Below are positions 2,065 through 63,864 of a stretch of DNA of 64,000 bases, in pieces. The notes beneath the pieces were generated by a model. It searched no databases. It saw only the letters and a program-made list of their open reading frames with translations, and was not told the DNA's origin. Within the stretch, counting starts at the first letter, position 1, and every line of letters starts with the position of its first letter. The translations under genes were made by a program, and so were the position numbers. Origin of the DNA: Acidobacteriota bacterium (GTDB lineage: Bacteria > Acidobacteriota > Thermoanaerobaculia > Multivoradales > UBA5704); the NCBI GenBank assembly GCA_040005235.1, contig JBDTZG010000010.1:58292-122291 (forward strand), in the 5' to 3' direction.

Positions 2065-2337
2065 ATGGTCCGTCGAACTGTCGTCCTTGTTGCGTCCTTC
2101 CTTCTGGTGGCCTCAGCGGCGCTTGCAGCAGGCGCCTCCCGCGAGTCTCGATCTCTCTGGGAATCGTTTTCGACAAGATCTTTCCTGGAATCAGTCCGTG
2201 TCGCGCTCAGCGGTCTCCTTCACGATCCGATCGGTCTCTTTGCGAACAATGGCAGCGAGACCGATCCAAACGGCAAGCCTCTCGCGTCGCCGCCGGCAGG
2301 AGTTGGAAACGGCGGCACATCTCCTCAGGCCCAGTGA
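2065..2337 (+). CDS. Small secreted peptide with an ANNGxxxDPNGKP motif
   Basis: RBS-like AAAGGTG, then ATG 2065. Signal peptide MVRRTVVLVASFLLVASAALA. The motif is shared with 61437..61793. Confidence 0.75.
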   Translation: MVRRTVVLVASFLLVASAALAAGASRESRSLWESFSTRSFLESVRVALSGLLHDPIGLFANNGSETDPNGKPLASPPAGVGNGGTSPQAQ

Positions 2338-2352
2338 TTGATGTCTGTGCTC

Positions 2353-2387
2353 GGCGGAGGCCAAATTATCGGCCTCCGCCTCTTTTT
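2353..2387 (+). terminator. Rho-independent terminator after the peptide gene
   Basis: GGCGGAGGCC-AAATTATC-GGCCTCCGCC followed by TCTTTTT. Confidence 0.8.
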
Positions 2388-2459
2388 GTCCCGGATGACC
2401 CCTTGAAGCTCACCTCCAAGAGTAAGACACTACAGCTCTAGCGCGAAAGGACACAGGGG

Positions 2460-3824
2460 ATGAATGATCTGCATCTGAGTCGGGAGCTTCTTCGTGCCAT
2501 CGCGGCCGGCGACCTTCCCCCTCGCACACTTCTCGACATGGCCCTCCCACACCTGTTCGAGCTTTGCCCGCACTGTGCCTCGGAGTGGGATTCGTATCAG
2601 CGCGAGATGCGGACGCGCCCGGGAAGTTACGCGGGCGCCTTCGCGATTCTTCCAGCCCTCCTCGAACGGGAACTTCCCAAGGCACAGGCAGAGGAACACC
2701 AAGCCCGCAAGGATCTCCAAGTCCTCTTGGGCCTCCCCGAGGACCAGCGTATTTCGCGTGTTCGTCGCTCCTATCGACGCTTCCGGACACCGACTCTGGC
2801 CCAACTCCTTGTTATCGAATGCAGGAAGCGGTTGAGTTCCGTTCCCCGCGAGGCCTACCATTTAGCGGATCTCGCTCGCGAGGTCACAAACCAGGTTCCC
2901 GAGTCACCGATCGCCCGCGAGCTGCGGGCGCTTTCGTTTGGCGAGATGGCAAACGCCATCCGGGCCGTCGGTGATCTCCCACAAAGCGACCGCATCTTCG
3001 GCCAGGCTCGCTACTTCACCGTGGTTGGCGGGGTAACCGATCCAGAGATCCTGGCACGGCTCGACTCATTGGAAGGCTCACTGCGACTCGACCAGGGCCG
3101 CTACCGTGATGCCGAAGAGATCCTCGGCAGGGCGCGGCTTCACTACGAGCTCATAGGCGACCGTCCTGCGGTCGGGCGAGTGCTCATGCAGCTCGCGACG
3201 GTGTACCGCCGCAGTGGAGAGACTTCACGCGCAGTGCGGCTCGGGACAGAGGTCGTCGGATACTTCGACCCTGAGTCCGACCTTTGCCTCTATCTCGCCG
3301 CCCGGCGGAACCTCGCGGACTACCTTGGCGATTATGGGCGCGGGAGGGAGGCCCTCGCGATTCTCGACGAGGACGAGGTGCGGCATCGCTCCCTCGGAGA
3401 GCCCCTTCTCCAGATCCGCTACACCTGGATTCGCGGCAAGATCGCTATCGGTCAAGGAGAATTCGAGAGCGCGGCGCGCCTTCTTGCCGCGGCGCGCGAT
3501 GTCTTTCTTGGCTCCCAGAAGGAGTTTGACACCGTTTTGGTCTCACTTGATCTTGCCCAGGCCTATCTTGGTGCCGGACGCCTGGAGGAGACGAAGCGAA
3601 TCGCCTCGGAAATCGTGCCGCTCTTCGAGGCGAATGAGCTGCATCGCGAGGCATTGGCGGCCGTTCTCGTTTTTCGCGACGCCGCCGAGCGCGAGACGCT
3701 TACGGTCGATTTCCTGCGAGAGATGGGAACATTCCTCGAAGCCTCCCGGACAGATCATTCTCTGCGATTCGAGCCTGGCAAGCGTCTGAATCCACGGGGA
3801 CGGACACTTAGCAATGACGCCTGA
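2460..3824 (+). CDS. TPR-repeat protein with N-terminal zinc-finger (ZAS/zf-HC2-like H...HxxxxCxxC)
   Basis: N-terminus LHLS...HLFELCPHC followed by tandem TPR-like helical repeats (e.g. LEGSLRLDQGRYRDAEEILGRA). Confidence 0.8.
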   Translation: MNDLHLSRELLRAIAAGDLPPRTLLDMALPHLFELCPHCASEWDSYQREMRTRPGSYAGAFAILPALLERELPKAQAEEHQARKDLQVLLGLPEDQRISRVRRSYRRFRTPTLAQLLVIECRKRLSSVPREAYHLADLAREVTNQVPESPIARELRALSFGEMANAIRAVGDLPQSDRIFGQARYFTVVGGVTDPEILARLDSLEGSLRLDQGRYRDAEEILGRARLHYELIGDRPAVGRVLMQLATVYRRSGETSRAVRLGTEVVGYFDPESDLCLYLAARRNLADYLGDYGRGREALAILDEDEVRHRSLGEPLLQIRYTWIRGKIAIGQGEFESAARLLAAARDVFLGSQKEFDTVLVSLDLAQAYLGAGRLEETKRIASEIVPLFEANELHREALAAVLVFRDAAERETLTVDFLREMGTFLEASRTDHSLRFEPGKRLNPRGRTLSNDA

Positions 3825-3988
3825 GACCGATGGTTTTCGCACTATGCGCCGACGCCTCTTAACGCACAGCGAGACATGCACATATCTGAATTTGACGCGA
3901 TGCGCGTGAAGCGACAGACTTCTTGACGTTATGATGCTTTTGCCCATTTTCCAGTAATGCTTTTACTCAACACCAATAGGAGACATCA

Positions 3989-4723
3989 ATGCGCTACATT
4001 CTCGCTTTCTCAATACTCCTGATCGCCGCTTCCTCTCCACACGCGAGTGCCTTGGATATTAGAACGACACCATTGCCTTCTGTCACTGCTGCAACGGTCT
4101 CTACGCAGTTTGGCTACACCACAGCCCAAGCCAAAGGAATGTTGGACTTAACCCAGAAAGAACTCTGGTCTCTCGTACCACCGAATCCGACGGCATGGAC
4201 AACTTCCACTTACGCTCTGAGAACTCGAATGAATACGGCTCTTGGGACGCAGGGTTTCGACAGTCCACTTGCAAATGTAATCATCAATTCTTGCAAGGTT
4301 TATGCTCGCGATGCTCGTCACTGTGTCATATTTGCGTCGGCGGTCGCCTGTGCTGAAAGTAGCTGCGGTCAGACATATAGCACTTCTGCTTATGCAATTT
4401 TCGGCCTCAAAGATAGCAACAGCCAACCTATTAAATACTCGTCAAGGACGCATGCGGTCATTGATTGGGTGAAGAGGTATAATGTCAGCTGGTTCGTTGC
4501 TGACGAAGGTTATTTTTACGGATTCTGCAAAAAATACGGCTCGACCTTCCTTCCGCATTGCGACAACGTAGGCACAGACTATTATGCAAATTATTTTTAC
4601 TCGAACAAGAAGGGCCGGTATCCTGCGTCGAATTATTGCGGCTCTGAGAGCGGCTCCTCCACTCCTGGTTATTGTCCAAACGGATTCGCGAATTCCAAGG
4701 CGGCGTACTTGAAGGTCAAATGA
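3989..4723 (+). CDS. Secreted Cys-rich protein, possible GH73/glucosaminidase (lysozyme-like) domain
   Basis: AGGAGA RBS; signal peptide; AVACAESSCG...AIFGL...YSSRTHAVIDWV resembles the GH73 AxAxxESxxG...NxFG...(F/Y)xS pattern. Confidence 0.5.
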   Translation: MRYILAFSILLIAASSPHASALDIRTTPLPSVTAATVSTQFGYTTAQAKGMLDLTQKELWSLVPPNPTAWTTSTYALRTRMNTALGTQGFDSPLANVIINSCKVYARDARHCVIFASAVACAESSCGQTYSTSAYAIFGLKDSNSQPIKYSSRTHAVIDWVKRYNVSWFVADEGYFYGFCKKYGSTFLPHCDNVGTDYYANYFYSNKKGRYPASNYCGSESGSSTPGYCPNGFANSKAAYLKVK

Positions 4724-4964
4724 CCTCGATTTCCGATTCTAGAGTCCAGACGCAATCCGCGGATACCATGTGAACATGCTCTTCCACTCTCGAATGCCAC
4801 CGCTCCACATGTGGCCGGAGATCGCAGCAGACCGCCGTCATGGCAAGCAATGCACTCATGACGCGCTTCCTACGCGGCTATTCTGCGGGAACAGAGCTAT
4901 CTCAATTACGGAATTCGGGCCGCGGTGTGAGGAGCACCTCAGGCCGAGCTAGCAGCAAGCCGCC

Positions 4965-6119
4965 TCACAAAGCAATCCTGAGTTGGCTGGGTGAGGCTTC
5001 CAAGGTTCTTGAACCTCCCGGAGAAGGCTTCGCAGGAATGAAGGGGCGATCAATCCACTGTTTATAGGCAGCGATGTTACAGGTAAGGAGTGCGTCCACC
5101 AACCTGTTTGCTTCCGGGTCAACTCCTTCCCACTTAATCCGCCGCGACATCAACCGCGCCCTTTTCCTCTTGATAGAATTCATGAAGGGCCTCGAATCGC
5201 TTATCGTCCAATCGGTAAAGAGTCGAGAGATCTCTCCCCTGAATTGTGCAGCTCCAACAGCAACAAGGTGCAAAGGCCGCTTCAGAGCATCCTGAAGCCG
5301 TGCTAAGTGGTGCAGGGCATCGCGCCCTCGCGCCGGATTCGCGAGACCGGTCTGGAACTCTTTCGAGACCATCGTGATCTCTTCGTGAGTCTCCAAAAAT
5401 TCGAGCCAGTATTGCCAGTCTCGTAGAGTAACAGCCTGAAGATATGGAATGATTGGAATACCACGTGCACTCCATTCCCGAGCACAGACCAAGGAGCGCT
5501 TTCGGTTGTAGAGATGCTGGGGCCGAGGATGGCGTAACGAGAAGGAATAGTTTGGAACTATTGCTCCGCTAAAACCCATTTTCGCGAGTGAAGCAAAAAT
5601 CTCTTCGTTCCTGTCTCCCCAATAGCGCTCAATGACATCATCCAGACCAATACCTACCAACAACAGCTTTGCTGTTGGTCGCAGCTTGAACCGTTCTCGG
5701 ATTGCACTGCGAGACATCGCAATAGGAGTTGGTATGCCTCGGGGATGTTGAATCAAACCAGAGAGAGGTACGGCTGCCCAATCAGCGCGAAGAGACCTCG
5801 CGCGGCTTGATCCATGCTGGATTAGCGGGAGGTAGCGTGGAAGTGCTTCAGTTGGAACATTCAAAGGTCCAATATCGTCAAAATCAAAACCTCCAACCTC
5901 AATGAATGCGTCGTTCAAGACATCAGGCTTACCGAGGCAGATAAGATCACAATCAGCGGCACAGCCGTTGCATCGGCCCTCACACCATCCCCCACCAACT
6001 CGAGTATTCCCACCACAGAGATACAATAAGCCGCAGCCCTGACACCATAAGCTGACAGTGTCACCGTCCATGCGGTGAAGTTCGATGTTCTCGCTCAAGA
6101 CCTCTCGAGACCTTTTCAT
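4965..6119 (-). CDS. DUF4417-like protein with N-terminal Cys-rich (metal-binding) region
   Basis: N-terminal CxxC...C...CxxxCxxCxxxCxxxC cluster; core PNYSFSLRHPRPQHLYNRKRSL...GIPIIPYL resembles DUF4417. Confidence 0.6.
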   Translation of the reverse strand: MKRSREVLSENIELHRMDGDTVSLWCQGCGLLYLCGGNTRVGGGWCEGRCNGCAADCDLICLGKPDVLNDAFIEVGGFDFDDIGPLNVPTEALPRYLPLIQHGSSRARSLRADWAAVPLSGLIQHPRGIPTPIAMSRSAIRERFKLRPTAKLLLVGIGLDDVIERYWGDRNEEIFASLAKMGFSGAIVPNYSFSLRHPRPQHLYNRKRSLVCAREWSARGIPIIPYLQAVTLRDWQYWLEFLETHEEITMVSKEFQTGLANPARGRDALHHLARLQDALKRPLHLVAVGAAQFRGEISRLFTDWTISDSRPFMNSIKRKRARLMSRRIKWEGVDPEANRLVDALLTCNIAAYKQWIDRPFIPAKPSPGGSRTLEASPSQLRIAL

Positions 6120-6137
6120 TAATGATCAACCTTTCGC

Positions 6138-6503
6138 TTAATGCTTCTCGTATCGAGGATGGAATTTCAGTGCAACTATTCCTTCCTCTTGGAAAACCTC
6201 GGTTACTTCGGCCGATAGAGCTTTGCTCTGTCGCGCGCTCGCGGAAGCTTCACCGAATAGTTCGACCACCCGCGATTTTCCATACGACAACGTGAAACTG
6301 TCTTGCTCTCCTACTTGAGGAAAGTGCACGAGTCTTTGACCGGGCTTGACTGACTGGCCTGGCATGAGCAGACCAATCACGTCAGACGAAATACTCGGAG
6401 GTACGCCCGAAAAAAGGTCTGGTCCAGCGAGAAACCTCTGGAAGTCGCGATCGATGCAGCGACGGATCTGTCTGTGCTGACGCTCAAGAAACTCTTCACC
6501 CAT
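6138..6503 (-). CDS. Hypothetical protein, third gene of the operon
   Basis: GGAGGT RBS before ATG 6503; tightly packed between the STAS-wHTH and DUF4417-like genes. Confidence 0.7.
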   Translation of the reverse strand: MGEEFLERQHRQIRRCIDRDFQRFLAGPDLFSGVPPSISSDVIGLLMPGQSVKPGQRLVHFPQVGEQDSFTLSYGKSRVVELFGEASASARQSKALSAEVTEVFQEEGIVALKFHPRYEKH

Positions 6504-6505
6504 AG

Positions 6506-7114
6506 CTACCTCCATAAGGGGACGTAAACAAATTGACGTCCATACTTGTAGCGACTGAGAAGCCGCTGCTCATAGAGCAGAGCAAGCCGATTGCTCCACC
6601 CTGTCTGTTGAATTCGGGGATCTTGACGAAAAAGGTCGGTAGCAGTTGCCTGTTCTAGAGAAACAACCCGGTCGTACGTCTCGGTAGCGTCTCGGTCAAG
6701 CCCGAAAGGCCGAAACTTTTGCTGATCGGGTTCCCAGAAGAGGGTTCGATAACCGGTAGCCTTGAGGGCGAGCTCAATCTCGTCCCTTGACTCTGGGTTT
6801 ACGTCTGCGAGTACTGGAAAAAGCTCCTTCTCGCGCGCAACCCGAGAATTCCAGAGCCACTCAAACGCACCGAGGAAATAGGAGGAAGTGACGAGTTGCA
6901 CTCCTCCGAAGTCCAAAAGAATTGCAGCGTTCGAGGTTTCCCTACCGATCGCCTCATCCAGGGCGGGACGAGTGGCCTCACCCGCAAGTCGGCCGGCTAG
7001 GGTCGTACTCCCCCCTAGTGCCGCTACATCTACCCTGACCTGCGTCAGCATCACCATGAATCGTGACGATAGAAGAATCGGCAAGGACTTGTCAACCCCC
7101 CCCTTACGCTCCAT
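6506..7114 (-). CDS. STAS-like (DUF4325-type) domain fused to a C-terminal winged HTH (true start may be ~7057)
   Basis: ILLDFGGVQLVTSSYF is a STAS-like LDFxGV...S motif. C-terminal ATATDLF...WSNRLALLYEQRLL.R...GRQFVY looks like a wHTH. Confidence 0.65.
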   Translation of the reverse strand: MERKGGVDKSLPILLSSRFMVMLTQVRVDVAALGGSTTLAGRLAGEATRPALDEAIGRETSNAAILLDFGGVQLVTSSYFLGAFEWLWNSRVAREKELFPVLADVNPESRDEIELALKATGYRTLFWEPDQQKFRPFGLDRDATETYDRVVSLEQATATDLFRQDPRIQQTGWSNRLALLYEQRLLSRYKYGRQFVYVPLWR

Positions 7115-8018
7115 TGAATGGGCCTCCTAGTCGAACTCGAAAGCCATTGCTCCGAACTGGCAAGGCGCGAGCATGGATCGTTTGGTGGGTGGGGCTTACC
7201 CCCTCCCATGTCGCGACAGCCCCCCCTGAGCGGAAGCGAAGAACAGCCCGACGATCGACCAAGGACTTAAAGACGCGGGAGAACCCCATTCCCCGACCTG
7301 AAATTGGCAACCGAGACACACCGGGTTGGAGCGCCTGCTCCAGTGCTTCACCTTCAGTCCCAAGAGCCTTGTGGCGCGGGTTCTCTCTCAGGCTTGCGAG
7401 CACTCCCCTCCCAACATCTACAACACTGAGAGCCCACGTTCCTTGGCCAACCTCAAAACATGCAACAGGGCGCACAGGCGAAACTGCGTGCTCTGCCGCA
7501 TTCGACATCATCTCCTGAAGCGCCCCAGCAAGTGCACTCGCGAAACCTGACCCCACGCCTTGGCTGCGCAAGGCGGTGCGGAATTGCTCCTGAAACTGGG
7601 TCAGAATTCCACCTGGCTCCCAGTCCTTCGGTGATGTACCGAATTGTTTGATTCCTGGGCGAATAGGCCCTTGGGTATATGCCAAGCTTCGGGACTGATC
7701 TGGCTGGAGAAGCTCGCAGCCCGCAGCTAGTGCTCGCAAATTAGTGAGCGCAGGCCAACGCTCCAATTCCGGAAATGATGAAATAAGATCCTCTCCGCTA
7801 TCTCGCCATCTCGAGTAGCGAAGTGCGGAGAACTCCAACGCTGAAGAAAACCCCAAACCGACGAGATTTCCTCCCGTTGCAGTTCCCCTTTGTAGGGCAA
7901 TCTCAAACAGATCAATAGGATCGAAGGATTGAGACATTCTGGTCCGCTTTGGCTTTCGGTCCACTTCCCATTGAGCAGCTCCTTTCGGTGCCGAGAAAGG
8001 CAGGCGTAAGTCTATCAT
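7104..8018 (-). CDS. GHKL/HATPase_c ATP-binding protein (anti-sigma-kinase-like)
   Basis: N box EMMSNAAEHA, G1 VVDVGRGV, G2 GVSR...GRGMGF; no HisKA or sensor TM segment is evident. Confidence 0.8.
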   Translation of the reverse strand: MIDLRLPFSAPKGAAQWEVDRKPKRTRMSQSFDPIDLFEIALQRGTATGGNLVGLGFSSALEFSALRYSRWRDSGEDLISSFPELERWPALTNLRALAAGCELLQPDQSRSLAYTQGPIRPGIKQFGTSPKDWEPGGILTQFQEQFRTALRSQGVGSGFASALAGALQEMMSNAAEHAVSPVRPVACFEVGQGTWALSVVDVGRGVLASLRENPRHKALGTEGEALEQALQPGVSRLPISGRGMGFSRVFKSLVDRRAVLRFRSGGAVATWEGVSPTHQTIHARALPVRSNGFRVRLGGPFNGA

Positions 8019-55026: not shown

Positions 55027-55959
55027 ATGCCGTTCGTGCTCGGCGTCGGCCGCTCCGGCACGACGATGCTCCGGCTGATGCTCGATGCCCACAGCCAGCT
55101 CGCCATCCCGCAGGAAACCGGGTTCGCCGAAGAGATCGAGCGCCGCCTGTCGGCCGGAACGCCGCTCGCCGAGGCCGCCCTCGGCGCCATCTCGGATTGC
55201 GACAACTCTTCCAGCTTCGGTCTGTCGACGGACGACCTCGCCGGCGCCTTCGCCGACCTGCCGCCCGGGGATCGAGACGGCGCGGGAACGGGCCTCGCAC
55301 TGCGCGCCTTTTATTCGCTCTACGCTCGGTCCCAGGGCAAGACCCGAGCCGGAGACAAGACGCCGATCCATACGGGCCATATCGTGCGGCTTCATCGCCA
55401 CCTGCCGGAGGCGCGCTTCGTCCACCTGATTCGCGACGGCCGCGACGTCGCCACCTCGATTCGCGATCTCTGGTTTGCCCCCAGCCGCGACCTTGCGGCT
55501 CTCGCCCGCTGGTGGCGGGAAACGATCGCCGTGGCGAGAAACCAGGCGCGGGATCTGCCGCCGGGCACTTACCTGGAAGTCCGCTACGAAGAGCTGATCT
55601 TGAATCCCGAGTCCGAGCTTCTCCGGATCTGCGCCTTCCTCGACCTGCCGTTCGAGCCACAGATGCTCGCCTTCCACACCCGAGCCCAAGGCCGCCTCGC
55701 CGAGATGCAGGCGGTACGCCGGCCGGACGGTCGTCTGGTCATCACCGCCGAGGAACGCCATCGCCAGCACCGCCTGACCCACGAACCCCCTCGGCCCGAA
55801 AGGATCGGCCGCTTTCGGAACGTCCTTTCGCGAAGCGAAATCTCGGCGTTCGAGGCCGAGGCCGGAGCGTTGCTTCGAGCGCTCGGCTATCCCCTCGCCG
55901 CGCGACCCTGGGAACGCCTCTGGGCGCGGGCGCGCCGTGCGATGATCTCTCCCTCATGA
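55027..55959 (+). CDS. Sulfotransferase family protein
   Basis: GVGRSGTTMLRLMLDAH, GDKTP, IRDGRDVATS, RYEELI. Confidence 0.9.
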   Translation: MPFVLGVGRSGTTMLRLMLDAHSQLAIPQETGFAEEIERRLSAGTPLAEAALGAISDCDNSSSFGLSTDDLAGAFADLPPGDRDGAGTGLALRAFYSLYARSQGKTRAGDKTPIHTGHIVRLHRHLPEARFVHLIRDGRDVATSIRDLWFAPSRDLAALARWWRETIAVARNQARDLPPGTYLEVRYEELILNPESELLRICAFLDLPFEPQMLAFHTRAQGRLAEMQAVRRPDGRLVITAEERHRQHRLTHEPPRPERIGRFRNVLSRSEISAFEAEAGALLRALGYPLAARPWERLWARARRAMISPS

Positions 55960-58679
55960 CCCTCCTTGAAACGATCCGGACACGCTGGGTTCAAGCTCGC
56001 CCGCGAATCGCATTCGCCCTGCTCATCGCCTTTGCCGCGTCGGCCGCGTCGGCCGCGTCGGCCGAGTCGGGCGGCGAAGCCCAGACTCAAGCCGAGTTGG
56101 TCGCCGACCTTGGACCGCCGCCGGGCCGTCCCGGTTTCTTGGCTCCGCGCTCGCCGATTCGGATCGGCAACCGGATCTTGTTCTTTGCTTCGGACGAGGT
56201 TGCGAGCACCGAGCTTTGGGCGACGGACGGGACGACCGCCGGGACGCTGCGGGTGCGCGACGTGCGGCCCGGCATCGACCCGGGCTCCTTCGGCTACGCC
56301 TTCGGCATGGTTGCTGCCCGGGACCGGGGCTTCTTCCAGACCGCCGATCCGCTGGCCGGGCTCAGGCTTTGGGTCACCGACGGAACGCGCCCAGGGACGA
56401 CGGCGATTTTCTCCGCCGGCTCCTCCGACATCGGCGGGCCCGGCGTTCCGGCGGTGCAGACGGCGGCGATCGGCCGGGATCTCTTCTTCCTGCGCACCAT
56501 CGCCGAAAGCCGGCTGGAAGTCTGGCGCTCCGACGGCACGGAGAACGGCGCGCGGCGTCTGGCGGAGCTGCCAACCACCGCGCCCGGGGTACCGGCCGTC
56601 GTCGTGCAGGCGGCGGGCCGCGTGTACTTCACGTTCCAAGGCATCAACCGGCGGGAGCTCTGGACCAGCGATGGCACGGAACAAGGAACGCTCCCGCTCG
56701 CCGTGTTCGCCAGCTATCCGATGCCCGGCTTTGGGCTCCCGGCTCCGGTCGCGGTCGGAAGCCGACTCTATTTCGTCGATCACGACCCGGACCATGGCTA
56801 CGAGCTCTGGACATCGGATGGCACGATCCCGGGCACGCGGCTCGTACGCGACTTCACCCCCGGCCGCCAGAGCTCATCGTTCTCTTTTCTCGCCGCGGTC
56901 CGCAACGCGGCGTTTTTCGCGATCGGCAGCCGAGAAGGCGCAGCGATCTGGCGAAGCGATGGCACCGAAGCGGGAACCGTGTCGCTCGCGGAGCGCACCG
57001 GCAACGGCATTGAGCCGGTCGCGCCGCTCGGGGGGCAGCTCCTGTTCGCGCAGGACGGCGCCCTCTGGCGCACGCAAGGCGAACACCCTCCTCTGCGGCT
57101 CGCCGAGAGCCTCTTCCCTTGTGGCGGTGCCGCCACGGCGGGAAACCGGGTTTATTTCGCCGCTCGCGACAGCGGCCACGGCTGCGAGCTGTGGCGGACC
57201 GACGGCACCCCCGAAGGAACGGCCCTGGCATTTGACGCCGTACCGGGGGAAAACTCCTCGGAGCCGGAGCCGCACGCCCTCGGCGGCCGCATTCTCCTCT
57301 TCTCCCGCACGCTGGAAGAGATCCGGGTGGTCGAAGGGGATCGGGTTCGGACGCTTCGTCGTCCCCACACCGAGTTTCGGTCCGGCGCACCCGCGTTTCT
57401 GACTCCCCTGGGCACGGGGCTCGCTTTCGGCGCGAACGGCACCGTCCGGCGAGCGCTCTGGCGAACCGACGGCTCGGCGGAAGGAACGGTGAGCATCGAG
57501 TCGGGACCCGGCTGGTTTTTCGATCCGGCCCTTCCCAGCGACTTGACCGCCCTCGGTACCCGGCTCGCCTTCCGCACGCCCGCCGGGATTGAGGTCTGGG
57601 ACGGATTGGAGCACCCGGGAGCCGTTCCGGTCCTGGTGGCGGCGGATGGCTTGGGCCTCGGTTACTCCCTGGACCGGCGGACGCTCTTCCGCCGGGGCAA
57701 CCGGGCCTATTGGCTTGCACTCTCCCCGGGAGCTCAATTTCCGGCGGTCCCCACGATCGACTTGTGGAGCACCGACGGCACGCTCGTGGGGTCCGGTCTC
57801 GTCAAGAGTCTTTTCCCTGCGCCATTTTACGAACCCGGGGGGATCTATGTACTGCCGGATTTCTTCGCCGTGGCAAACGATACCGCCCTCTCCTTTTTCT
57901 TCTACTCCGGGGGCAGCGAGATCTGGACCACCGACGGCACGGCGGAGGGGACGCGCGAGATCTTCGACTTGAGCGCGGCGGACGACGAAGCGGCTCCGAG
58001 GCTCTTCGACGCGGCCGTGCCGTTCGCCGAAGGGCTCCTGTTCATCACCTGGGGACCCCAATCCGGCATTCAGATCTGGCGCACCGACGTCACGCCTCAA
58101 GGCGCTCACGTCATCGAGCAGGCCAGCGTGACCTCGATACCGCAGCGTCTGACCCGCAGCGGAAACCTCGCCTATTTCACCGCCGAGGACGATTCCGGGA
58201 CCGAGCTTTGGGCAACCGATGGAACGCCCTCCGGCGCGCGTAAGGTACTGGACCTCGCACCCGGCCCCATCAGCTCATTTCCGCAGGAGCTGACGCCCGT
58301 AGGCGACCGGCTGTTCTTCACCGCCGACGACGGAATCCACGGCCGCGAGATCTGGTCGAGCGACGGCACGGCCGAGGGGACCTCGATCGTCACCGATGTC
58401 GCACCAGGGCGCGCGACGTCCTTTCCTCAACATCTCGCGGCGATCGGCGGCGGCGACGTTCCCATCCGGCTCGCCTTCGCCGCCGACGACGGCCTTCACG
58501 GACTCGAACCCTGGACCGCCTCGGCAGACGGCACCGCGTCGGCACTCTTCGCCGACGTAGCCCCAGGCGACGCGTCGTCCAGCCCGGCCGAATTCACCTC
58601 GGTCGGTAATCGGTTGTATTTCGCGGCCGGAATTCGAAGAACCGGCCGCGAGCTGTGGAAGGCGACGATCCCGCCCTGA
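55956..58679 (+). CDS. ELWxxDGT-repeat (beta-propeller) surface protein
   Basis: More than 10 ELW(A/T/R)(T/S)DGT repeats; N-terminal signal; ATGA overlap with the sulfotransferase. Confidence 0.92.
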   Translation: MTLLETIRTRWVQARPRIAFALLIAFAASAASAASAESGGEAQTQAELVADLGPPPGRPGFLAPRSPIRIGNRILFFASDEVASTELWATDGTTAGTLRVRDVRPGIDPGSFGYAFGMVAARDRGFFQTADPLAGLRLWVTDGTRPGTTAIFSAGSSDIGGPGVPAVQTAAIGRDLFFLRTIAESRLEVWRSDGTENGARRLAELPTTAPGVPAVVVQAAGRVYFTFQGINRRELWTSDGTEQGTLPLAVFASYPMPGFGLPAPVAVGSRLYFVDHDPDHGYELWTSDGTIPGTRLVRDFTPGRQSSSFSFLAAVRNAAFFAIGSREGAAIWRSDGTEAGTVSLAERTGNGIEPVAPLGGQLLFAQDGALWRTQGEHPPLRLAESLFPCGGAATAGNRVYFAARDSGHGCELWRTDGTPEGTALAFDAVPGENSSEPEPHALGGRILLFSRTLEEIRVVEGDRVRTLRRPHTEFRSGAPAFLTPLGTGLAFGANGTVRRALWRTDGSAEGTVSIESGPGWFFDPALPSDLTALGTRLAFRTPAGIEVWDGLEHPGAVPVLVAADGLGLGYSLDRRTLFRRGNRAYWLALSPGAQFPAVPTIDLWSTDGTLVGSGLVKSLFPAPFYEPGGIYVLPDFFAVANDTALSFFFYSGGSEIWTTDGTAEGTREIFDLSAADDEAAPRLFDAAVPFAEGLLFITWGPQSGIQIWRTDVTPQGAHVIEQASVTSIPQRLTRSGNLAYFTAEDDSGTELWATDGTPSGARKVLDLAPGPISSFPQELTPVGDRLFFTADDGIHGREIWSSDGTAEGTSIVTDVAPGRATSFPQHLAAIGGGDVPIRLAFAADDGLHGLEPWTASADGTASALFADVAPGDASSSPAEFTSVGNRLYFAAGIRRTGRELWKATIPP

Positions 58680-58768: not shown

Positions 58769-59431
58769 TCAAACGGGGAAGCGCTTCGCGAGCCAGGCCT
58801 CGACCTCTTCGGGGTGGAATCCGAACGGCCCGGTCTTTCCCTTATAGACGATCACCCGCTTCGCATCGATGACATAGATCCGCTCCGGCCATCCGGCATA
58901 GACGGCATCCCCGGTGTTCTCGATTTCGTCGACCAGAAGCGGAACCGGAAAATGAAAACGGCGGATGAAATCGTTCGCGATCGCCACCCGCTGCGCCGTG
59001 CTCTTCGGCTGGGGATAGCAGACCCCTTCCTTCTCATTGCTCTCCATCTGCCACTCGTCCGTCGGGTGCGCTTCGCGAATATAGACCGCGACGAACGTCG
59101 CCTTGTCTCCATACTGCCGGTACATCTTCACCAGGCGCTCGACCGAGCGCCGGAACGGCGGTCAGGTGTAGCTGCCGAAAATGACCACCAGCGGCCGGTC
59201 GCCCATCCGCTCGCTCAAATGGACCCGCGTCTTGCCGTCGAGCGCCAACAGTGAAACGTCCGGCGCCCGATCCCCCACTGTAAGCGTCCCTTCTTTCCTC
59301 GTGTCGTAACGCAGCATTCCCCAAACGTTGCTAGGGCCGATGGTGACCAGCGCCCAAGTGACGACGCCCGTTACGACAACCCCCAACCCGATCGCGGTCC
59401 AGCGGATGGCTCTCTTGATCGATGGCTTCAT
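58769..59431 (-). CDS. Iodothyronine-deiodinase-like (thioredoxin-fold) selenoprotein; UGA at 59162-59164 read as Sec
   Basis: Two ORF-track fragments join in frame as PLVVIFGSYT-UGA-PPFRRS...VYIREAHPTDEW...YAGWPERIYVI; AAGGAG RBS before ATG 59431. Confidence 0.88.
59134..59151 (-). promoter_or_regulatory. Putative bacterial SECIS hairpin
   Basis: 10 nt after UGA: GGCGCUC-GGUC-GAGCGCC, a perfect 7-bp stem with a G-initiated apical loop. Confidence 0.65.
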
Positions 59432-59627
59432 GGCGTCACTCCTTTTCCTTGAGGCGGAGTTTGCCACGACCTACCCCTCAAGGTGAGTTTCTGGAGCCGC
59501 AGGGGGGGTTCCGCCTACGGCGGTCCCCGACGTCGAGAGCGGCGGTCGAAGAGCATAGTGTTGGCGACCCCAGAGGACGCCGCCCGTCGCTCAGGCCGGT
59601 GCTGCCGATCGTGCCCTGAGCTCCTTC

Positions 59628-60728
59628 TTAGGACTCCTCTTCTCCCGGGCGCTTTCGACGAATTCGCCGGCCGTCGAGCGATTCGTTGGGGGCTTGCGTC
59701 GTCCCCGCGATCTCTCCGGCTTCGAAAAGTAAGCGCGCCTCAACATCGCGCAACGCCAGGTCCGGGCCTGAGTCCGCCTGCCAGCCGAAGGTCTCGCGGA
59801 TGCCGGCGACGGAGCCGAGCGCCGCTTCCGGCCCTTCAAGGAGCAGCCAGCTCTCTGCCGCGCCGCTCGCCGCGCGCACCGCCAATCCGGTCGTCAGCTC
59901 CACCGGGCCGAAGCGAAGAGCGCCGAGAAATTCGTCGAGCGCCCGGCCGGGCTCCGCCCCTTCCAGGCACAGCTCTCCCAGCTCGACGCGTATTCGTGCC
60001 TCCGCGTCCGACTGACTGATCTCCTCGTAGAGATCTGCCGCTCGACCGAGGAGGGCGATCGCCTCGTCCCGCCGTTTCTGACCTTGCCGCAGCCGACCAA
60101 GCGTCCGGCAGAAGTCCGCCGCATCCAATACATCCCCGGTGTGCTCGACCCACTCGGGGGCAAACAACAGCGCGGCTTCGGCGCCGGCGAAATCGCCCAT
60201 TTCGCGGAGTGTCTCGCCGAGCGAGATGTAAGCCGCGGCACGCAGCGAGGCGCGTCGTCCTCGGGAGTCGCGGCCTTCGGGAACGAGGTCGAGAATCGCG
60301 CTCGCGAGCTGGATGAGATCCCGGCGCTCTGCCGGGTCGTAGGGCGACCGAGCGAGGAGCAACTCGGCGAGAGCGAGCTGATGAAACCGGGGCTCGGCGT
60401 AGAGGCGCTCGATCCGCTCCACTTTCGATGTCGGGAGGAGAAGCTCGCCGAGCAGTAGATCCGCCGCGATTCGATCGCGAGTGAAGGTTTGCCTTGCGCC
60501 GCCCACGGTGCGCTCGAGGCGATCGAAAAGTCCGGGGTAGTTTTCGCCCGCGCTCGGCGGTGGCTCTTCGGCCTTCAGATCGCGCACCTCGTTCGGAGCG
60601 ACTCCAACCCTGACTGCCGCCCACAGGGAGCATTTCGAACAGCGCAGAAGGTGGCTCAGCAGGGCCACATCCTGAAGCGAGAGGTCACTGAGGAAGGCGT
60701 GCAGGCGGTCGGTGGACGGATGGATCAA
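59628..60728 (-). CDS. TPR-repeat protein with N-terminal ZAS/zf-HC2-like motif
   Basis: IHPS...HLLRCSKC; TPR-like LGETLREMGDFAGAEAAL and LGRLRQGQKRRDEAIALL; start overlaps the XRE stop. Confidence 0.75.
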   Translation of the reverse strand: MIHPSTDRLHAFLSDLSLQDVALLSHLLRCSKCSLWAAVRVGVAPNEVRDLKAEEPPPSAGENYPGLFDRLERTVGGARQTFTRDRIAADLLLGELLLPTSKVERIERLYAEPRFHQLALAELLLARSPYDPAERRDLIQLASAILDLVPEGRDSRGRRASLRAAAYISLGETLREMGDFAGAEAALLFAPEWVEHTGDVLDAADFCRTLGRLRQGQKRRDEAIALLGRAADLYEEISQSDAEARIRVELGELCLEGAEPGRALDEFLGALRFGPVELTTGLAVRAASGAAESWLLLEGPEAALGSVAGIRETFGWQADSGPDLALRDVEARLLFEAGEIAGTTQAPNESLDGRRIRRKRPGEEES

Positions 60729-61111
60729 CGGGGTCCCTCCCGACGGATTTGAAGGCCGACCGCGAGCGCATCGAGAAATCCGGAGAACACCCGAAACTCT
60801 TCCTCGGTCATGACCTGCCGGATCGGTTGTAGAGGAGAGGGCACCGGCGTCTCTCGCTCGGCCGTCGTGCCCATCAACAGGTCATCGAGCGTCGTACCGA
60901 ACGCCTCGGCCAGCCGGAGCGCCTCCTGGAGAGTCGGGGGCACATGACCGTTCTCGATCCGCGAAATGCGCATCGGGCTCGTCCGTACCCGCTGGGCGAG
61001 CAGGCTCTGGGTCCAACGTCGATCCCTCCGCCGTTGCGCCAAGAGAGAACCGACATGGGCGGCGAAGGGAAGAGGCTGCAATGCGGAGATCCAAAGTTGC
61101 TTGCTGGTCAT
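60725..61111 (-). CDS. XRE-family HTH regulator
   Basis: VGSLLAQRRRDRRWTQSLLAQRVRTSPMRISRIENG...LRLAEAFGTTLDDLL. Confidence 0.88.
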   Translation of the reverse strand: MTSKQLWISALQPLPFAAHVGSLLAQRRRDRRWTQSLLAQRVRTSPMRISRIENGHVPPTLQEALRLAEAFGTTLDDLLMGTTAERETPVPSPLQPIRQVMTEEEFRVFSGFLDALAVGLQIRREGPR

Positions 61112-61226
61112 CAATCACCAGATTCTTCAGATAATCTGTCGATCGTCAAGACTTTTTCTCAATCTTGCACAGATCCGCTAGAAGTTACAGCTCCGCGATA
61201 TCTCCTTTCGGCAAGTCTTTGCGGAT

Positions 61227-61245
61227 CTTCAAGAGTCTCTTGAAG
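61227..61245. promoter_or_regulatory. Perfect palindrome, candidate operator in the divergent XRE/peptide intergenic region
   Basis: CTTCAAGAG-T-CTCTTGAAG. Confidence 0.5.
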
Positions 61246-61436
61246 TTTCGGATTCGGGCGACTAGTTTCCCGCCCAAGAGCCGACATTTCGGCGGGATCG
61301 CGGACGGCCGACTATTCCAAACGCGATAGTCGACTCTCCGGATCGCGCAAGTCTCGTCCAAACTAGGCGCAGGCCTTCGCGGGTCCCTCGACCAGTTCCG
61401 GCCGGCGGCCGAACCCGCGGGCGTTGGAGATCCCCC

Positions 61437-61793
61437 ATGTCGCGTCGAACGACCATTTCGCTCGTCGTCGTCCTCCTCTTCCTCGCGTCCGTCGCTCCTT
61501 CTGCTTACGCCGCTCCGTCCGGCACCCTGGCCGGCGGGGCGGATCTCTTCGCCCGCGCCTGGAGTTTCCTGGAGCGGCTCTGGCCGCAGGGCGTCGACGC
61601 GGCAGAGCCCGAGAGTCGCGCCGGCGTTCGCGCGATCTGGGCCAACAACGGCGCCTGCATCGATCCGGACGGCCGGCCGGCCGGGGCAGGGTGTGCTGCC
61701 CAGGTCCTCTGGTCCGACGGCGGGGGCTGCATCGATCCCAACGGAAAACCCGCCGCGTCCGCCTGCGCCAATCTGCTCGCACCGAATCGTTGA
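61437..61793 (+). CDS. Small secreted peptide with two (W)xxxGxCIDP(D/N)G(R/K)P repeats
   Basis: GGAG RBS; signal peptide MSRRTTISLVVVLLFLASVAPSAYA; WANNGACIDPDGRP and WSDGGGCIDPNGKP. Confidence 0.8.
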   Translation: MSRRTTISLVVVLLFLASVAPSAYAAPSGTLAGGADLFARAWSFLERLWPQGVDAAEPESRAGVRAIWANNGACIDPDGRPAGAGCAAQVLWSDGGGCIDPNGKPAASACANLLAPNR

Positions 61794-61803
61794 AGGCCGA
61801 GGG

Positions 61804-61847
61804 CGCTGCGGGGCAAGGCAGGTTGTCCCGCAGCGGTTCTTCTTTTC
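61804..61847 (+). terminator. Rho-independent terminator after the peptide gene
   Basis: CGCTGCGGGGCAA-GGCAGG-TTGTCCCGCAGCG followed by GTTCTTCTTTTC. Confidence 0.7.
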
Positions 61848-61941
61848 TCCCTTCGGGTCCCCCCTTGCGCGTTCGGTTGCTTGTGAGAGAATCCGGTTGC
61901 ACTTCTACGTACCATCGGTTTCCCCAGGGAGGGCTTGCGGC

Positions 61942-63282
61942 GTGAACGACCATGTGAGCGACGAGCAGGTCCGCCGGCTGACGCTCGGCGAGCTCGATGG
62001 GCTCGAACGGGCCGAGTGGCGAAACCTGGTCCATCACTTCCTCGCCGGCTGTGCGATCTGCAGCGAACGCGCAGAACCCTTGCTACAGGCGATTCTTCAG
62101 CCGGATATCGTGGCGGAAAGCGCTCCCGATCCGGAGATCGATGCTGAGCTGGACAGCGCGTACGACGCGGCGATCGGCCGGGCGCTCGATCGGTTTCGCG
62201 CCCGAGCCAAGCGCCAGTTTCCTTTCGGCGTGCCGCAGAGCGAGATTCCGCTGGACCTCACTGGAACTGGCCGGGTCGAATGGTTGCTCGCCCAGAGCTT
62301 CGCCGCCCGCTACAAGAACCCGAAGGAGATGTGGCGCTTCGCCACCTTCGCCCACCTCGCCGCCCGCTCGCTCGACGAGAGCCAGGCGACGCCCGAACTG
62401 GCGGCCGACCTTCAAGCCCGAACGTGCGCCGAGCTGGCCAACGCCTGCCGGGTCAACGACGATTTCACCGGTGCGGAGAAAGCGTTCGAGGAAGCTCGCA
62501 GGCATTTCGACCGGGGATCGCACGACCCATCGCTCGAAGCGCGGCTCCTCGAGCTTCGCGCCACCTACCTGAACGATCGGAGCTTATTCCCGCAAGCTTG
62601 CGACCTCCTGTTCCGCGTCGAGCAGATTCAGCGCGAGATCGGCGACCCTCACCTCGCCGCGCGTGCCGTGGTGCTCCGAGGGATCTACACGCTCTACGAC
62701 GAAAATCCCAAGGCGGCACGGGAGCTGCTCGCGCGCGGGCTCCGTGGCCTTGACCCGGAGCGAGATCCGGAGCTTTACCATTCCACCCGCCAGAGCTACA
62801 TCTGGGCCCTCGTCGACTGCGGAGAGGCGCTGCGGGCGGCCAACGAACTCTTGTCGAGTGGACTGCGCGAGGCGCTGGCCGACTCTCCGCTCAACCTCGC
62901 CAAGCTGCGCTGGCTCGAGGGCCATATCTATGCAGGCCTCCGACGACGGGAGCTTGCCGAAGGCGCGTTTCAAGCGGCCCGCGAGGCGTTTCACCAACAC
63001 GGGCAGGCCTACAACGCGAGCCTGGTCGGCCTCGATCTCGCGGCGGTCTGGCTCGAACAGGGACGCACCCGCGACGTGATGGACCTGGCCGACGAGATCT
63101 CAGCGATCTTCGCCCAGCTCGGCGTGTCTCGGGAGGTCGAGCTGGCCATCCGGTACGTCTATGTCGCCTGCGAAATGAACCTGGCGACCGCCGGCAAGAT
63201 CCGCTACGTCAAACGCTTTCTCGAACGGGCCGAGCGCGATCCCTACCTTGCGTTCGTCTATCCGGAGCAGGCGGGCCGCTAG
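61942..63282 (+). CDS. TPR-repeat protein with N-terminal ZAS/zf-HC2-like motif (paralog of 2460..3824)
   Basis: GGAGG RBS then GTG 61942; NDHVS...HHFLAGCAIC; shares ELANA.R, LRW..G.I..G and LV.LDLA..(W/Y)L..GR with 2460..3824. Confidence 0.82.
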   Translation: MNDHVSDEQVRRLTLGELDGLERAEWRNLVHHFLAGCAICSERAEPLLQAILQPDIVAESAPDPEIDAELDSAYDAAIGRALDRFRARAKRQFPFGVPQSEIPLDLTGTGRVEWLLAQSFAARYKNPKEMWRFATFAHLAARSLDESQATPELAADLQARTCAELANACRVNDDFTGAEKAFEEARRHFDRGSHDPSLEARLLELRATYLNDRSLFPQACDLLFRVEQIQREIGDPHLAARAVVLRGIYTLYDENPKAARELLARGLRGLDPERDPELYHSTRQSYIWALVDCGEALRAANELLSSGLREALADSPLNLAKLRWLEGHIYAGLRRRELAEGAFQAAREAFHQHGQAYNASLVGLDLAAVWLEQGRTRDVMDLADEISAIFAQLGVSREVELAIRYVYVACEMNLATAGKIRYVKRFLERAERDPYLAFVYPEQAGR

Positions 63283-63304
63283 AGCTCCTACGAGCTCGCT
63301 CTTG

Positions 63305-63703
63305 TCAGCGCGGAGGCAGTGCCAGCTCCTGCAGCAGACGGTACAGCGACTCACGCACCTGCTCGTCGATCGGCGCGTCGGAGGATCGCCGCTCTCGGAG
63401 AATGCGGCGACGCACCTCTTCGATCTGCTCGATGGTGAACCGCGCGCCGGGATCGTTGCGCCGCTGCTCGGCCAGCCGGAAGAATTCCGAAGCCGGAAAA
63501 TCGAGCACGGCCGACAGCACCATGATGTGCCGCACTTTCAACTCGACAGCGCCGTGCAGCAACTTGCTCAGATAGCCGGCCGCGAGCCCCATCTCCCGTT
63601 CCAGTTGTTGGCGGGTCCGCTTGGTCAGCGAGATCACCGCGATGATCGCCTCTCGTACCTCGTCGACACCGTGGTCGAATTCGTCGGTTGATTCACTCGC
63701 CAT
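63305..63703 (-). CDS. XRE-like HTH protein
   Basis: RTRQQLEREMGLAAGYLSKLLHGAVELKVRHIMVLSAVLDFPASEFF; ATG 63703 (the longer ORF-track start runs into the tRNAs). Confidence 0.78.
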   Translation of the reverse strand: MASESTDEFDHGVDEVREAIIAVISLTKRTRQQLEREMGLAAGYLSKLLHGAVELKVRHIMVLSAVLDFPASEFFRLAEQRRNDPGARFTIEQIEEVRRRILRERRSSDAPIDEQVRESLYRLLQELALPPR

Positions 63704-63789: not shown

Positions 63790-63864
63790 TGGAGGCGACG
63801 ACCGGATTCGAACCGGTGGATAAGGGTTTTGCAGACCCTCGCCTTACCACTTGGCTACGTCGCC
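63790..63864 (-). tRNA. tRNA-Cys(GCA)
   Basis: Reverse complement GGCGACGTAGCCAAGTGGTAAGGCG-AGGGT-CT-GCA-AA-ACCCT...GGTTCGAATCCGGTCGTCGCCTCCA. Confidence 0.95.

Follow-up and report, generated by a model that had tools for sequence, protein, structure and literature searches.

The window analyzed here (the whole stretch of 64,000 nucleotides, part of contig C104) contains, at 59628..63703, one elaborated copy of a lineage-specific module that pairs a predicted exported pro-peptide, pep2, with cytoplasmic tetratricopeptide repeat (TPR) regulators. The genome to which the window belongs (6.2 Mb, 66% G+C, 140 contigs) has close protein relatives among sequences labelled Thermoanaerobaculia (Acidobacteriota), and four Omp85-family matches in it indicate an outer membrane. 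Since the constant partners in these modules are a predicted exported, disordered pro-peptide and a cytoplasmic sensor-regulator, we read the peptide as the ligand of the sensor; that the two form a convergent RRNPP-like pro-peptide/cytoplasmic-receptor system, with an output of the helix-turn-helix (HTH) or the anti-sigma type, is in our judgment an evenly balanced proposition. An earlier note on this DNA had proposed an exported pro-peptide tied to a cytoplasmic TPR sensor and to XRE regulators, and this idea, which is partly supported, stands considerably stronger with the present data.

The five-gene layout that the note had outlined was recovered, every element listed in it being found at or near its place, and the first module of the window (pep1, hairpin, TPR_C) proved, as the note had claimed, to be laid out in the same manner. 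The elements are as follows:

59628..60728 (-): TPR_A, 366 aa, cytoplasmic; N-terminal H..HxxxCxxC zinc motif (H3, HLLRCSKC) and TPR sensor (TPR_12, E 8e-8)
60725..61111 (-): XRE1, 128 aa, XRE-family HTH protein (HTH_3, E 5e-13; HTH_31, E 3e-12), divergent from pep2
61114..61149 (-): promoter-like site TTGACG-16-AAGAAT, whose end lies 11 nt ahead of the XRE1 ATG (short leader or none)
61119-61138: inverted repeat CAGATT-N8-AATCTG, overlapping the XRE1 promoter-like site; candidate operator
61437..61793 (+): pep2, 118-aa predicted exported pro-peptide with signal peptide, Trp segment, variable linker and two cores
61804..61835 (+): intrinsic-terminator-like hairpin between pep2 and TPR_B (13-bp stem, T-rich tail, dG -28.7)
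61942..63282 (+): TPR_B, 446 aa, GTG start, cytoplasmic; three-helix, zinc anti-sigma-like N-domain (H4, H32, C37, C40), linker helix and TPR superhelix (108-432)
63305..63703 (-): XRE2, 132 aa, weak XRE-like HTH, convergent with TPR_B
63790..63864 (-): tRNA-Cys; a tRNA-Gly also follows the module
2065..2337 (+): pep1, 90-aa paralogous predicted exported peptide with a single Cys-free core, FANNGSETDPNGKP
2353..2380 (+): terminator-like hairpin 3' of pep1
2460..3824 (+): TPR_C, 454 aa, a paralog with the same type of zinc domain and TPR sensor (H5, HLFELCPHC)

We refer to TPR_A, TPR_B, TPR_C and other paralogs with an N-terminal zinc domain as ZAS-TPRs; no signal peptide or membrane segment was seen in the TPR protein sequences. 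TPR_A is a divergent, shorter member of the TPR family, with orthologs in L028-L030 at E 1e-99 to 1e-115, and its gene overlaps that of XRE1 by 4 nt, the TTG start of the one and the TGA stop of the other meeting in GTTGA; for XRE1, orthologs were found at E 1e-45 to 1e-51. As to the two flanking XRE genes of the earlier outline, XRE1 is a clear Cro/C1-type HTH protein, coupled to TPR_A and well above the family threshold (HTH_3, 49.2 bits against a cut-off of 23), but the assignment of XRE2 is less secure, as its HTH_3 match (16 bits, E 0.013) falls under the Pfam cut-off. XRE2 has orthologs at E 1e-68 in L029 and L030 and paralogs at five other loci of the ZAS type. The five-gene module is syntenic in three Thermoanaerobaculia metagenome-assembled genomes (MAGs), in one of which XRE2 was not found, and is mirrored in another genus (L037). 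The tRNA-Cys, at which the module had been placed, does adjoin it, but we regard the adjacency as incidental because the three orthologous loci lack a tRNA; mobility linked to the tRNA was rejected on the same grounds.

The N-terminus of pep2 comprises an n-region (MSRRT), a hydrophobic core of 14 residues and the sequence AYA|AP, with cleavage expected after AYA; pep1 likewise has an n-region, a hydrophobic core and an AxA site. The Trp segment of pep2 is LFARAWSFLERLW, and its cores, WANNGACIDPDGRP and WSDGGGCIDPNGKP, are two copies of the pattern W-x-[ND]-x-G-x-C-I-D-P-[ND]-G-[RK]-P-A-x3-C. The consensus previously drawn up over the three cores of pep1 and pep2, [FW]-x-[ND]-[NG]-G-x3-D-P-[ND]-G-[KR]-P, holds. 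The pep2 frame is under purifying selection (dN/dS 0.22-0.33 relative to three orthologs), and its orthologs (n=9, 45-79% identity) retain the signal peptide, the Trp segment, the four Cys and the I-D-P-x-G of each core; they differ in the linker and in whole repeats (2 vs 3).

More generally, the paralogous peptides follow a common plan, in which a signal peptide and an amphipathic Trp segment (W-x2-L-x2-L-W) precede one to four cores built around G-x-x-hydrophobic-D-P-x-G. We distinguish two core subtypes: in one, a Cys pair closes each core (G-C-x-x-D-P-x-G-x-C); cores of the other finish with [RK]-P and for the most part contain no Cys. The pep2 cores, with their wider Cys spacing, are intermediate. 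Searching 1.84 billion entries with a profile of the peptides returned 1455 representatives (50% identity clusters) at E <= 1e-3 and 294 at E <= 1e-10. Among the best 150 representatives, 146 are small, 134 have an N-terminal hydrophobic region and 133 a Cys-loop core, and most have three or four cores; the last core lies <=4 residues from the C-terminus in 85 of 143 representatives. The Atlas model of pep2 is essentially disordered (pLDDT 0.52, pTM 0.19). Being disordered, with a variable linker, invariant cores that lie toward the C-terminus and a repeat number that varies, the peptide behaves like a pro-peptide. Furthermore, when cores were compared at their variable positions, identity was 0.55 within one peptide vs 0.24 between peptides (permutation p = 2e-4), which fits the earlier suggestion that variable core residues confer specificity.

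As to the export route, an RR pair is present in the n-regions of 16 of the 32 peptide paralogs of this genome. The Tat pathway was nevertheless rejected as the main route, the hydrophobic cores being very hydrophobic, and because the fuller Tat motif was found in only 1 of 146 representatives, Sec appears the likelier one.

No family in Pfam or NCBIfam covers the peptides, the sole exception being a single Cys-loop representative, P0014, which matches Pfam DUF6799 across its last two cores (31.1 bits against a cut-off of 26.8). Four much larger proteins were also retrieved (P0011, P0022, P0024 and P0059; 639-783 aa), each with a signal peptide, an N-terminal domain of ~190 residues and C-terminal VDEWDxEVVKR repeats. 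They contain 7-12 matched G-x-x-[ILMV]-D-P-x-G-[RK] stretches, with many more discernible by eye, often back to back; they have no Pfam match, and their sequences resemble polyproteins assembled from the same core motif.

In this genome, a profile built from the paralogs identified 32 peptides of the pep2 kind, and phmmer identified 44 TPR paralogs. Counting peptide/TPR pairs per genome, a check that the earlier note had proposed, bore out their association: a TPR paralog is found no more than 150 bp away from 26 of the 32 peptides and no more than 400 bp away from 28, compared with a mean of 0.6 and a maximum of 5 under random placement (2000 trials, 400 bp). Conversely, 34 of the 44 TPR paralogs have an adjoining peptide. 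An XRE HTH was found at the N-terminus of 18 of 34 further TPR paralogs scanned with Pfam; 22 TPR paralogs carry an H-x(2-4)-C-x2-C motif instead of an HTH, and the N-terminal type is unclear in 4. The ZAS-TPR and HTH-TPR profiles align with each other over 354 columns (hhalign, probability 100%, E 1e-52), and therefore one sensor domain of ~355 residues carries interchangeable N-terminal domains.

The loci fall into two arrangements. Thirteen of the 14 type I loci have, divergent from the peptide gene, an XRE-HTH gene that is short or encodes a complete HTH-TPR; a TPR paralog (an HTH-TPR in 13, of unclear N-terminal type in 1) is convergent with the peptide gene. At type II loci (n=15, both modules of the window among them), the peptide gene lies beside a ZAS-TPR gene, upstream and on the same strand in 14 of 15 and downstream in 1; a divergent XRE gene is found upstream in 4 of these loci and an XRE2-like gene nearby in 6. 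Peptide and sensor distances are correlated over 27 pairs (Mantel r = 0.44, p = 5e-4), as they are within type I (r = 0.36, p = 0.014; nearest-neighbour agreement 11/14). Since neighbours that were duplicated together would by themselves give such a correlation, we take it to mean that the modules were inherited as units, contact between the products not being implied.

An all-against-all comparison of the open reading frames (ORFs) within 5 kb of the 32 loci revealed no recurrent enzyme, protease or transporter. The recurrent neighbour families are divergent XRE proteins, XRE2-like proteins (at the six type II loci) and two small proteins of type I loci. The latter are encoded by conserved small cytoplasmic genes that are divergent from the HTH-TPR gene, for example L022:1964-2437(-), L022:2811-3278(-) and L020:2936-3334(-). 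The first (~130-155 aa), which is weakly TPR-like, was found on 10 contigs, and the second (~150 aa), with the motif RWRELAPFREAVL and lacking any Pfam match, on 5-6. These proteins may be a regulated output or further components of the system.

To characterize the sensor, we modelled TPR_B with AlphaFold2 using 61 homologs (mean pLDDT 88.6, pTM 0.74). In the model, three helices at the N-terminus (7-52) are connected by a poorly defined linker, which includes one long helix, to a regular all-helical solenoid (108-432). A type I protein from C76, also modelled with AlphaFold2 (pLDDT 83.3), shows the same solenoid, preceded by an HTH domain of five helices and one long helix. When the TPR_B model was compared with 48,161 representative PDB chains, the matches included LGN (score 24.1; root-mean-square deviation 3.6, 296 aligned) and Pins (23.2), followed by RapI (20.3; deviation 4.1, 301 aligned), NprR-NprX (20.1), RapH (18.5), the phage phi105 Rap with its peptide (18.4), pLS20 Rap (18.3), DdvA (15.6), MalT domain III (14.8), AimR (14.7) and PlcR-PapR (14.0). 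Foldseek agrees (LGN, E 1.8e-6; RapJ-CSF, rank 13; NprR, rank 34), and the HTH-TPR model gave a similar set of matches: LGN 21.5, APPBP2 21.1, RapI 19.2, NprR 19.0, PlcR 15.0 (residues 6-417) and AimR 14.2, with subunits of the APC/C tied among them. The eight-repeat TPR domains of LGN and Pins are eukaryotic, share 14-15% identity with the sensor and have no evolutionary or functional link to it; the match to them shows only that the solenoid is a long, regular TPR superhelix. As modelled, the sensor forms a long TPR superhelix, a type of structure that accommodates extended peptides; Rap and NprR rank among the solved relatives nearest to it.

As to the N-domain of the ZAS-TPRs, H32, C37 and C40 are invariant among 61 TPR_B homologs and H4 is present in at least 90%. 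TPR_B and TPR_C have the motif H-x4-C-x2-C and TPR_A has H-x3-C-x2-C, each with an upstream His (H4, H5 and H3, respectively), and the four-ligand pattern of TPR_B is one that we take to be that of ChrR. A profile of the TPR_B family gave weak matches to PDB sequences over positions 2-58 (RslA 3hug_B, E 0.0028; DdvA, 0.05; ChrR, 0.1). The call of a zinc finger on the TPR proteins, made in the earlier note, rests on the invariant ligand set together with these weak matches to solved anti-sigma domains; the Pfam model for such domains, zf-HC2, has no match on the ZAS-TPRs at E <= 0.1. From its sequence, then, the zinc N-domain looks anti-sigma-like.

Several loci associate these proteins with sigma factors. 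A TPR_A-like gene on C124 precedes a sigma-like gene, and in other families a sigma gene lies directly upstream of a ZAS-TPR gene in L054 (in the order peptide, sigma, ZAS-TPR, sigma, sigma) and L057. Within this genome, about 3 of 22 ZAS-TPRs have an adjoining sigma gene. One locus, L002 (G000:C103:9383-19799), contains at 2414-7459 an ECF sigma gene, a ZAS-TPR gene overlapping it by 4 nt, an ECF sigma gene, a repeat peptide with three GIQIDGNG cores, an ECF sigma gene and a ZAS-TPR gene. At the locus under study, XRE1 occupies the place of the sigma gene, with the same stop/start overlap, and for this reason we propose that the zinc domain may here hold an XRE partner.

Across four genomes, the XRE1-pep2 intergenic region is 78% identical, and the pep2 upstream region and 5' leader (61300..61436, +) exceeds 90% identity over the last ~130 nt before the ATG; the leader is thus better conserved than pep2 itself, the peptides of these four genomes being 43-79% identical. 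The leader ends in GGAGA-N7-ATG, and RNAalifold pairs a GTCTC with this GGAGA ribosome-binding site; it detected no informative covariation in the leader. An Rfam scan matched only the two tRNAs, leaving the leader without a family. In the inverted repeat near XRE1, the CAGATT and AATCTG arms are identical in all four genomes and a single spacer base differs. The gap of ~100 nt at type I loci, between the start of the divergent XRE gene and that of the peptide gene, contains a different palindrome of 14-16 bp in each paralog, of the form ACCC....GGGT (e.g., L020 around 5370-5500 and L004 around 5020-5147), which suggests that these are paralog-specific operators; the same gap provides the type I peptide genes with a strong Shine-Dalgarno / AAGGAGAC ribosome-binding site. 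No two-block promoter motif common to the regions preceding the peptide genes could be distinguished clearly from shuffled controls. Terminator-like hairpins follow the peptide gene at 7 of 15 type II loci and at none of the 14 type I loci. Taken as sequence features, these intergenic elements would fit locally acting, module-specific repressors or activators.

We determined the distribution of the peptides and of the sensor domain in other genomes. Peptide matches are present in all 24 genomes analyzed from the same GTDB family (1-39 each; 10-39 in each of seven other genomes of the same genus) and in 3 of 16 genomes from other families of the order, with one match each. In an even sample of the phylum, none of 200 other genomes had a match among the 28 candidates scored in each; we take this to indicate a narrow distribution, not to prove absence. 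The sensor domain reaches wider than the peptides: it was found in all 24 family genomes (16 to at least 49 matches per genome) and in 13 of the 16 genomes of other families. The association of the two is maintained across genera, a TPR paralog directly adjoining the peptide gene at all 20 peptide loci taken from five genomes of four other genera, and most of these 20 genes are flanked by two TPR paralogs. Of 18 ZAS-TPR loci from three other families, 11 have an adjoining small ORF, mostly upstream and on the same strand, that encodes a signal peptide and a Trp segment, has a linker of variable sequence that is acidic or rich in Gly, and bears one DP[ND]G core located at the extreme C-terminus or close to it; one further locus has a variant core. 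Because it is found beside ZAS-TPRs in other families, the single-core, ZAS-linked form appears to be the older and wider one.

Two neighbours of the module in the window deserve mention in their own right. At 58769-59467 (-), beside the module, two adjoining ORFs that both match Pfam T4_deiodinase form one frame of 232 codons, broken by an in-frame TGA within FGSYT-[TGA]-PPF; as this TGA sits at the selenocysteine position of deiodinase-like proteins, we consider the frame a candidate selenoprotein gene. Upstream of the module, at 55197-58679 (+), lies a large ORF rich in ELW.xDGT-type repeats, of which the segment 55959-58679 has no Pfam match at E <= 0.01.

These data allow a mechanism to be proposed for the RRNPP-like reading, in which the route of export, the processing and re-import of the peptide, its binding as a ligand, the nature of the ZAS partner and the targets of the system are inferred. 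pep2 would be made from its own, strongly conserved promoter and leader, with most transcripts stopping at the hairpin and some reading through into TPR_B. Its signal peptide would carry it across the inner membrane, most likely via Sec, and proteolysis would free one or more core peptides of ~10-20 residues centred on G-x-C-I-D-P-x-G-[RK]-P, in this case with a probable disulfide closing them. Once concentrated enough, the core would return to the cytoplasm; the genome encodes one Opp-type importer (one SBP_bac_5 binding protein and two permeases), whose genes lie 4 kb from one module and are unlinked to the others. There the core would be bound by its cognate sensor, inside the TPR superhelix. 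Where the sensor is fused to an XRE HTH, this would alter DNA binding by that HTH; where it carries a zinc domain (TPR_A, TPR_B, TPR_C), the anti-sigma-like N-domain would hold or release a separately encoded DNA-binding partner, which may be an ECF sigma factor at a few loci and is here most likely XRE1 (with TPR_A) and XRE2 (with TPR_B). XRE1 would in turn act on the intergenic region that it shares with pep2, closing an autoregulatory loop.

A number of observations weigh against the RRNPP-like reading. The matches to Rap and NprR are tied with those to unrelated long TPR proteins (LGN, APC/C subunits, APPBP2), and therefore the fold supports peptide binding only in a general way. Sensor profiles run against PDB sequences found generic TPR proteins and no RRNPP receptor among the 60 matches listed per profile, and RapF reached only E 0.018 in the profile search. 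Since the fold matches are unspecific and the sequence profiles generic, the resemblance to RRNPPA is one of architecture and logic, and family membership is not established. Thus, the RRNPP-like arrangement of peptide, TPR sensor and XRE protein suggested at the outset is favored by the pairing, by the HTH-fused sensor forms and by the Rap/NprR-like fold, but a profile link specific to RRNPP was not found. Nor is the pairing complete: 10 of the 44 TPR paralogs have no peptide within 400 bp, no signal-peptide ORF was found within 900 bp of the eight of them that were checked, and 3 of the 32 peptides have no TPR paralog nearby. Co-phylogeny, which the earlier note had proposed to test, is seen within the genome at type I loci but was not detected within type II, the ZAS type (r = -0.03; nearest-neighbour agreement 0/13). 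We found no dedicated exporter, importer or protease conserved beside the modules and no match for a sigma gene (Sigma70_r2) on the contig of the window. Furthermore, a peptide of 10-20 residues must cross the outer membrane twice, the convergent orientation seen at HTH-type loci is unusual for RRNPP systems, export, processing, import and binding are predictions, and all of the genomes compared are MAGs.

The main rival to the RRNPP-like reading, which we hold to be unlikely on balance, is that the peptides are regulated secreted effectors (disulfide-looped antimicrobial or bacteriocin-like, adhesive or matrix-forming, or metal- or calcium-binding) and that the TPR and XRE proteins are local regulators sensing some other cue. 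Divergent regulator-target pairs are common, and the XRE1/pep2 intergenic region does contain operator-like repeats; the Cys-loop cores are compact and turn-rich (DPNG), as is typical of stable extracellular peptides; toxins, too, form diversified arsenals of paralogs; and no importer is linked to the modules. In addition, the many copies of the same unit in the four 639-783-aa proteins suggest that the motif can also serve a structural or bulk role. However, one or two dedicated regulators for each of ~30 small peptides would be a heavy overhead for effectors, and the loci contain no recurrent immunity gene, dedicated exporter or maturation enzyme. The sensor domain, moreover, duplicates along with the peptide, and the simplest form across the order, a single short C-terminal core on a variable pro-peptide, resembles a signal.

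Three further explanations are less likely than secreted effectors. The TPR protein might bind the unexported precursor, for instance at its Trp segment, in the manner of class II type III secretion chaperones, and so report export load. The Trp segment is indeed the most conserved part of the peptides across paralogs, as would fit a common docking site, the TPR fold is common to chaperone and adaptor TPR proteins, with weak NCBIfam matches to SctY chaperones, and neither passage through the outer membrane nor an importer would be needed. But a segment common to all paralogs cannot provide the pair specificity suggested by co-duplication and by the peptide-specific core residues, Sec substrates are normally kept unfolded and exported quickly, and we know of no precedent for such sensing with Sec-exported peptides; we regard secretion-coupled sensing as improbable. 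Lower still do we place the possibility that the ZAS-TPRs are ordinary soluble anti-sigma factors that sense redox state or stress, like RsrA and ChrR, the peptide merely belonging to the sigma regulon. Invariant ligands, the profile matches to RslA, DdvA and ChrR, and sigma genes that are translationally coupled to a ZAS-TPR gene in C103 and adjoin one in L054 and L057 would all accord with this, yet only about 3 of the 22 ZAS-TPRs of the genome adjoin a sigma gene, the constant neighbour is the peptide, not sigma, and 18 paralogs combine the same sensor with an HTH while having a peptide partner of this same kind. Least probable of all, and hardly to be expected, is a reading touched on in the earlier note, in which the peptides are precursors of ribosomally synthesized and post-translationally modified peptides (RiPPs); the repeated cores would then be modified by enzymes, and the TPR protein would be a biosynthetic recognition factor or scaffold. 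A conserved, leader-like segment in front of several cores is what such a precursor would show, and TPR_A has a weak NCBIfam match to the RiPP-associated TPR protein HaaT (E 7e-4). This match (17.8 bits against a cut-off of 1125) is far under threshold, however, a classical signal peptide precedes the leader, the partners bear DNA-binding or anti-sigma-like domains, and no family of modifying enzymes, proteases or transporters recurs around the 32 loci.

The RRNPP-like reading can be compared with what is known of RRNPP(A) systems. According to two papers (PMC9765709, PMC11343458), RRNPPA systems include multi-copy pro-peptides and expanded sets of cognate pairs, and pro-peptides duplicated in tandem are reported to be processed by extracellular proteases. 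PMC10075063 and PMC12700828 assign RRNPPA systems to Bacillota and the mobile elements of these bacteria, for which no outgroup is known, and both papers, like PMC9765709, regard peptide signalling via intracellular TPR receptors as a feature of Gram-positive Bacillota and of those elements. The modules described here share with RRNPP(A) systems a cytoplasmic receptor with a TPR-type superhelix as sensor and an adjoining small gene for a predicted exported pro-peptide (28/32 loci). The N-terminal HTH or Rap-type helical domain of RRNPP(A) receptors is absent from TPR_A, TPR_B and TPR_C, which have the zinc domain, but present in 18 paralogs. In contrast to the named systems (Rap-Phr, NprR-NprX, PlcR-PapR, Rgg-SHP, PrgX and AimR-AimP), the host here is a diderm acidobacterium; the cores have a greater length and are organized around a conserved G-x-x-hydrophobic-D-P-x-G turn, in many cases with a Cys pair; a Trp segment is conserved after the signal peptide; in half of the receptors, a zinc anti-sigma-like domain takes the place of the HTH; and two regulators per locus are common, with HTH-type loci convergent with the peptide. 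With the class I ZAS anti-sigma factors (ChrR, RslA, RsrA), the ZAS-TPRs share the three-helix N-domain and the H...H-x3/4-C-x2-C ligands, and some paralogs overlap an upstream ECF sigma gene. They differ in being soluble proteins fused to a TPR superhelix of 320 residues, and most ZAS-TPR copies have no adjoining sigma gene; at this locus XRE genes stand in its place. Our literature searches, supplementary files aside, found no description of such an exported-peptide/TPR system.

It is possible, though we would put it at somewhat short of an even prospect, that a family-level clade of Thermoanaerobaculia runs tens of private channels per cell, in which Sec-exported pro-peptides give rise to turn-forming, often disulfide-cyclised DPxG cores that are read by dedicated TPR receptors, whose output has been swapped between an XRE HTH and a zinc domain sequestering sigma or XRE. 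If true, this would be the first communication of the RRNPP type (pro-peptide and intracellular receptor) in a diderm phylum, having arisen independently of the Bacillota systems, and it would add peptide-controlled anti-sigma or anti-repressor activity as a new receptor output. RRNPP-like logic would then have evolved or survived behind an outer membrane, which raises the question of how the peptides cross it, and these systems would supply an outgroup or convergent comparator for the evolution of RRNPPA, which a 2025 structural phylogeny paper names as missing. Even if the peptides are effectors, they constitute a large unannotated part of these genomes (1455 clusters at 50% identity in public data); as signals, they would give soil microbiology a way to approach cell-cell communication in a phylum that is poorly represented in culture.

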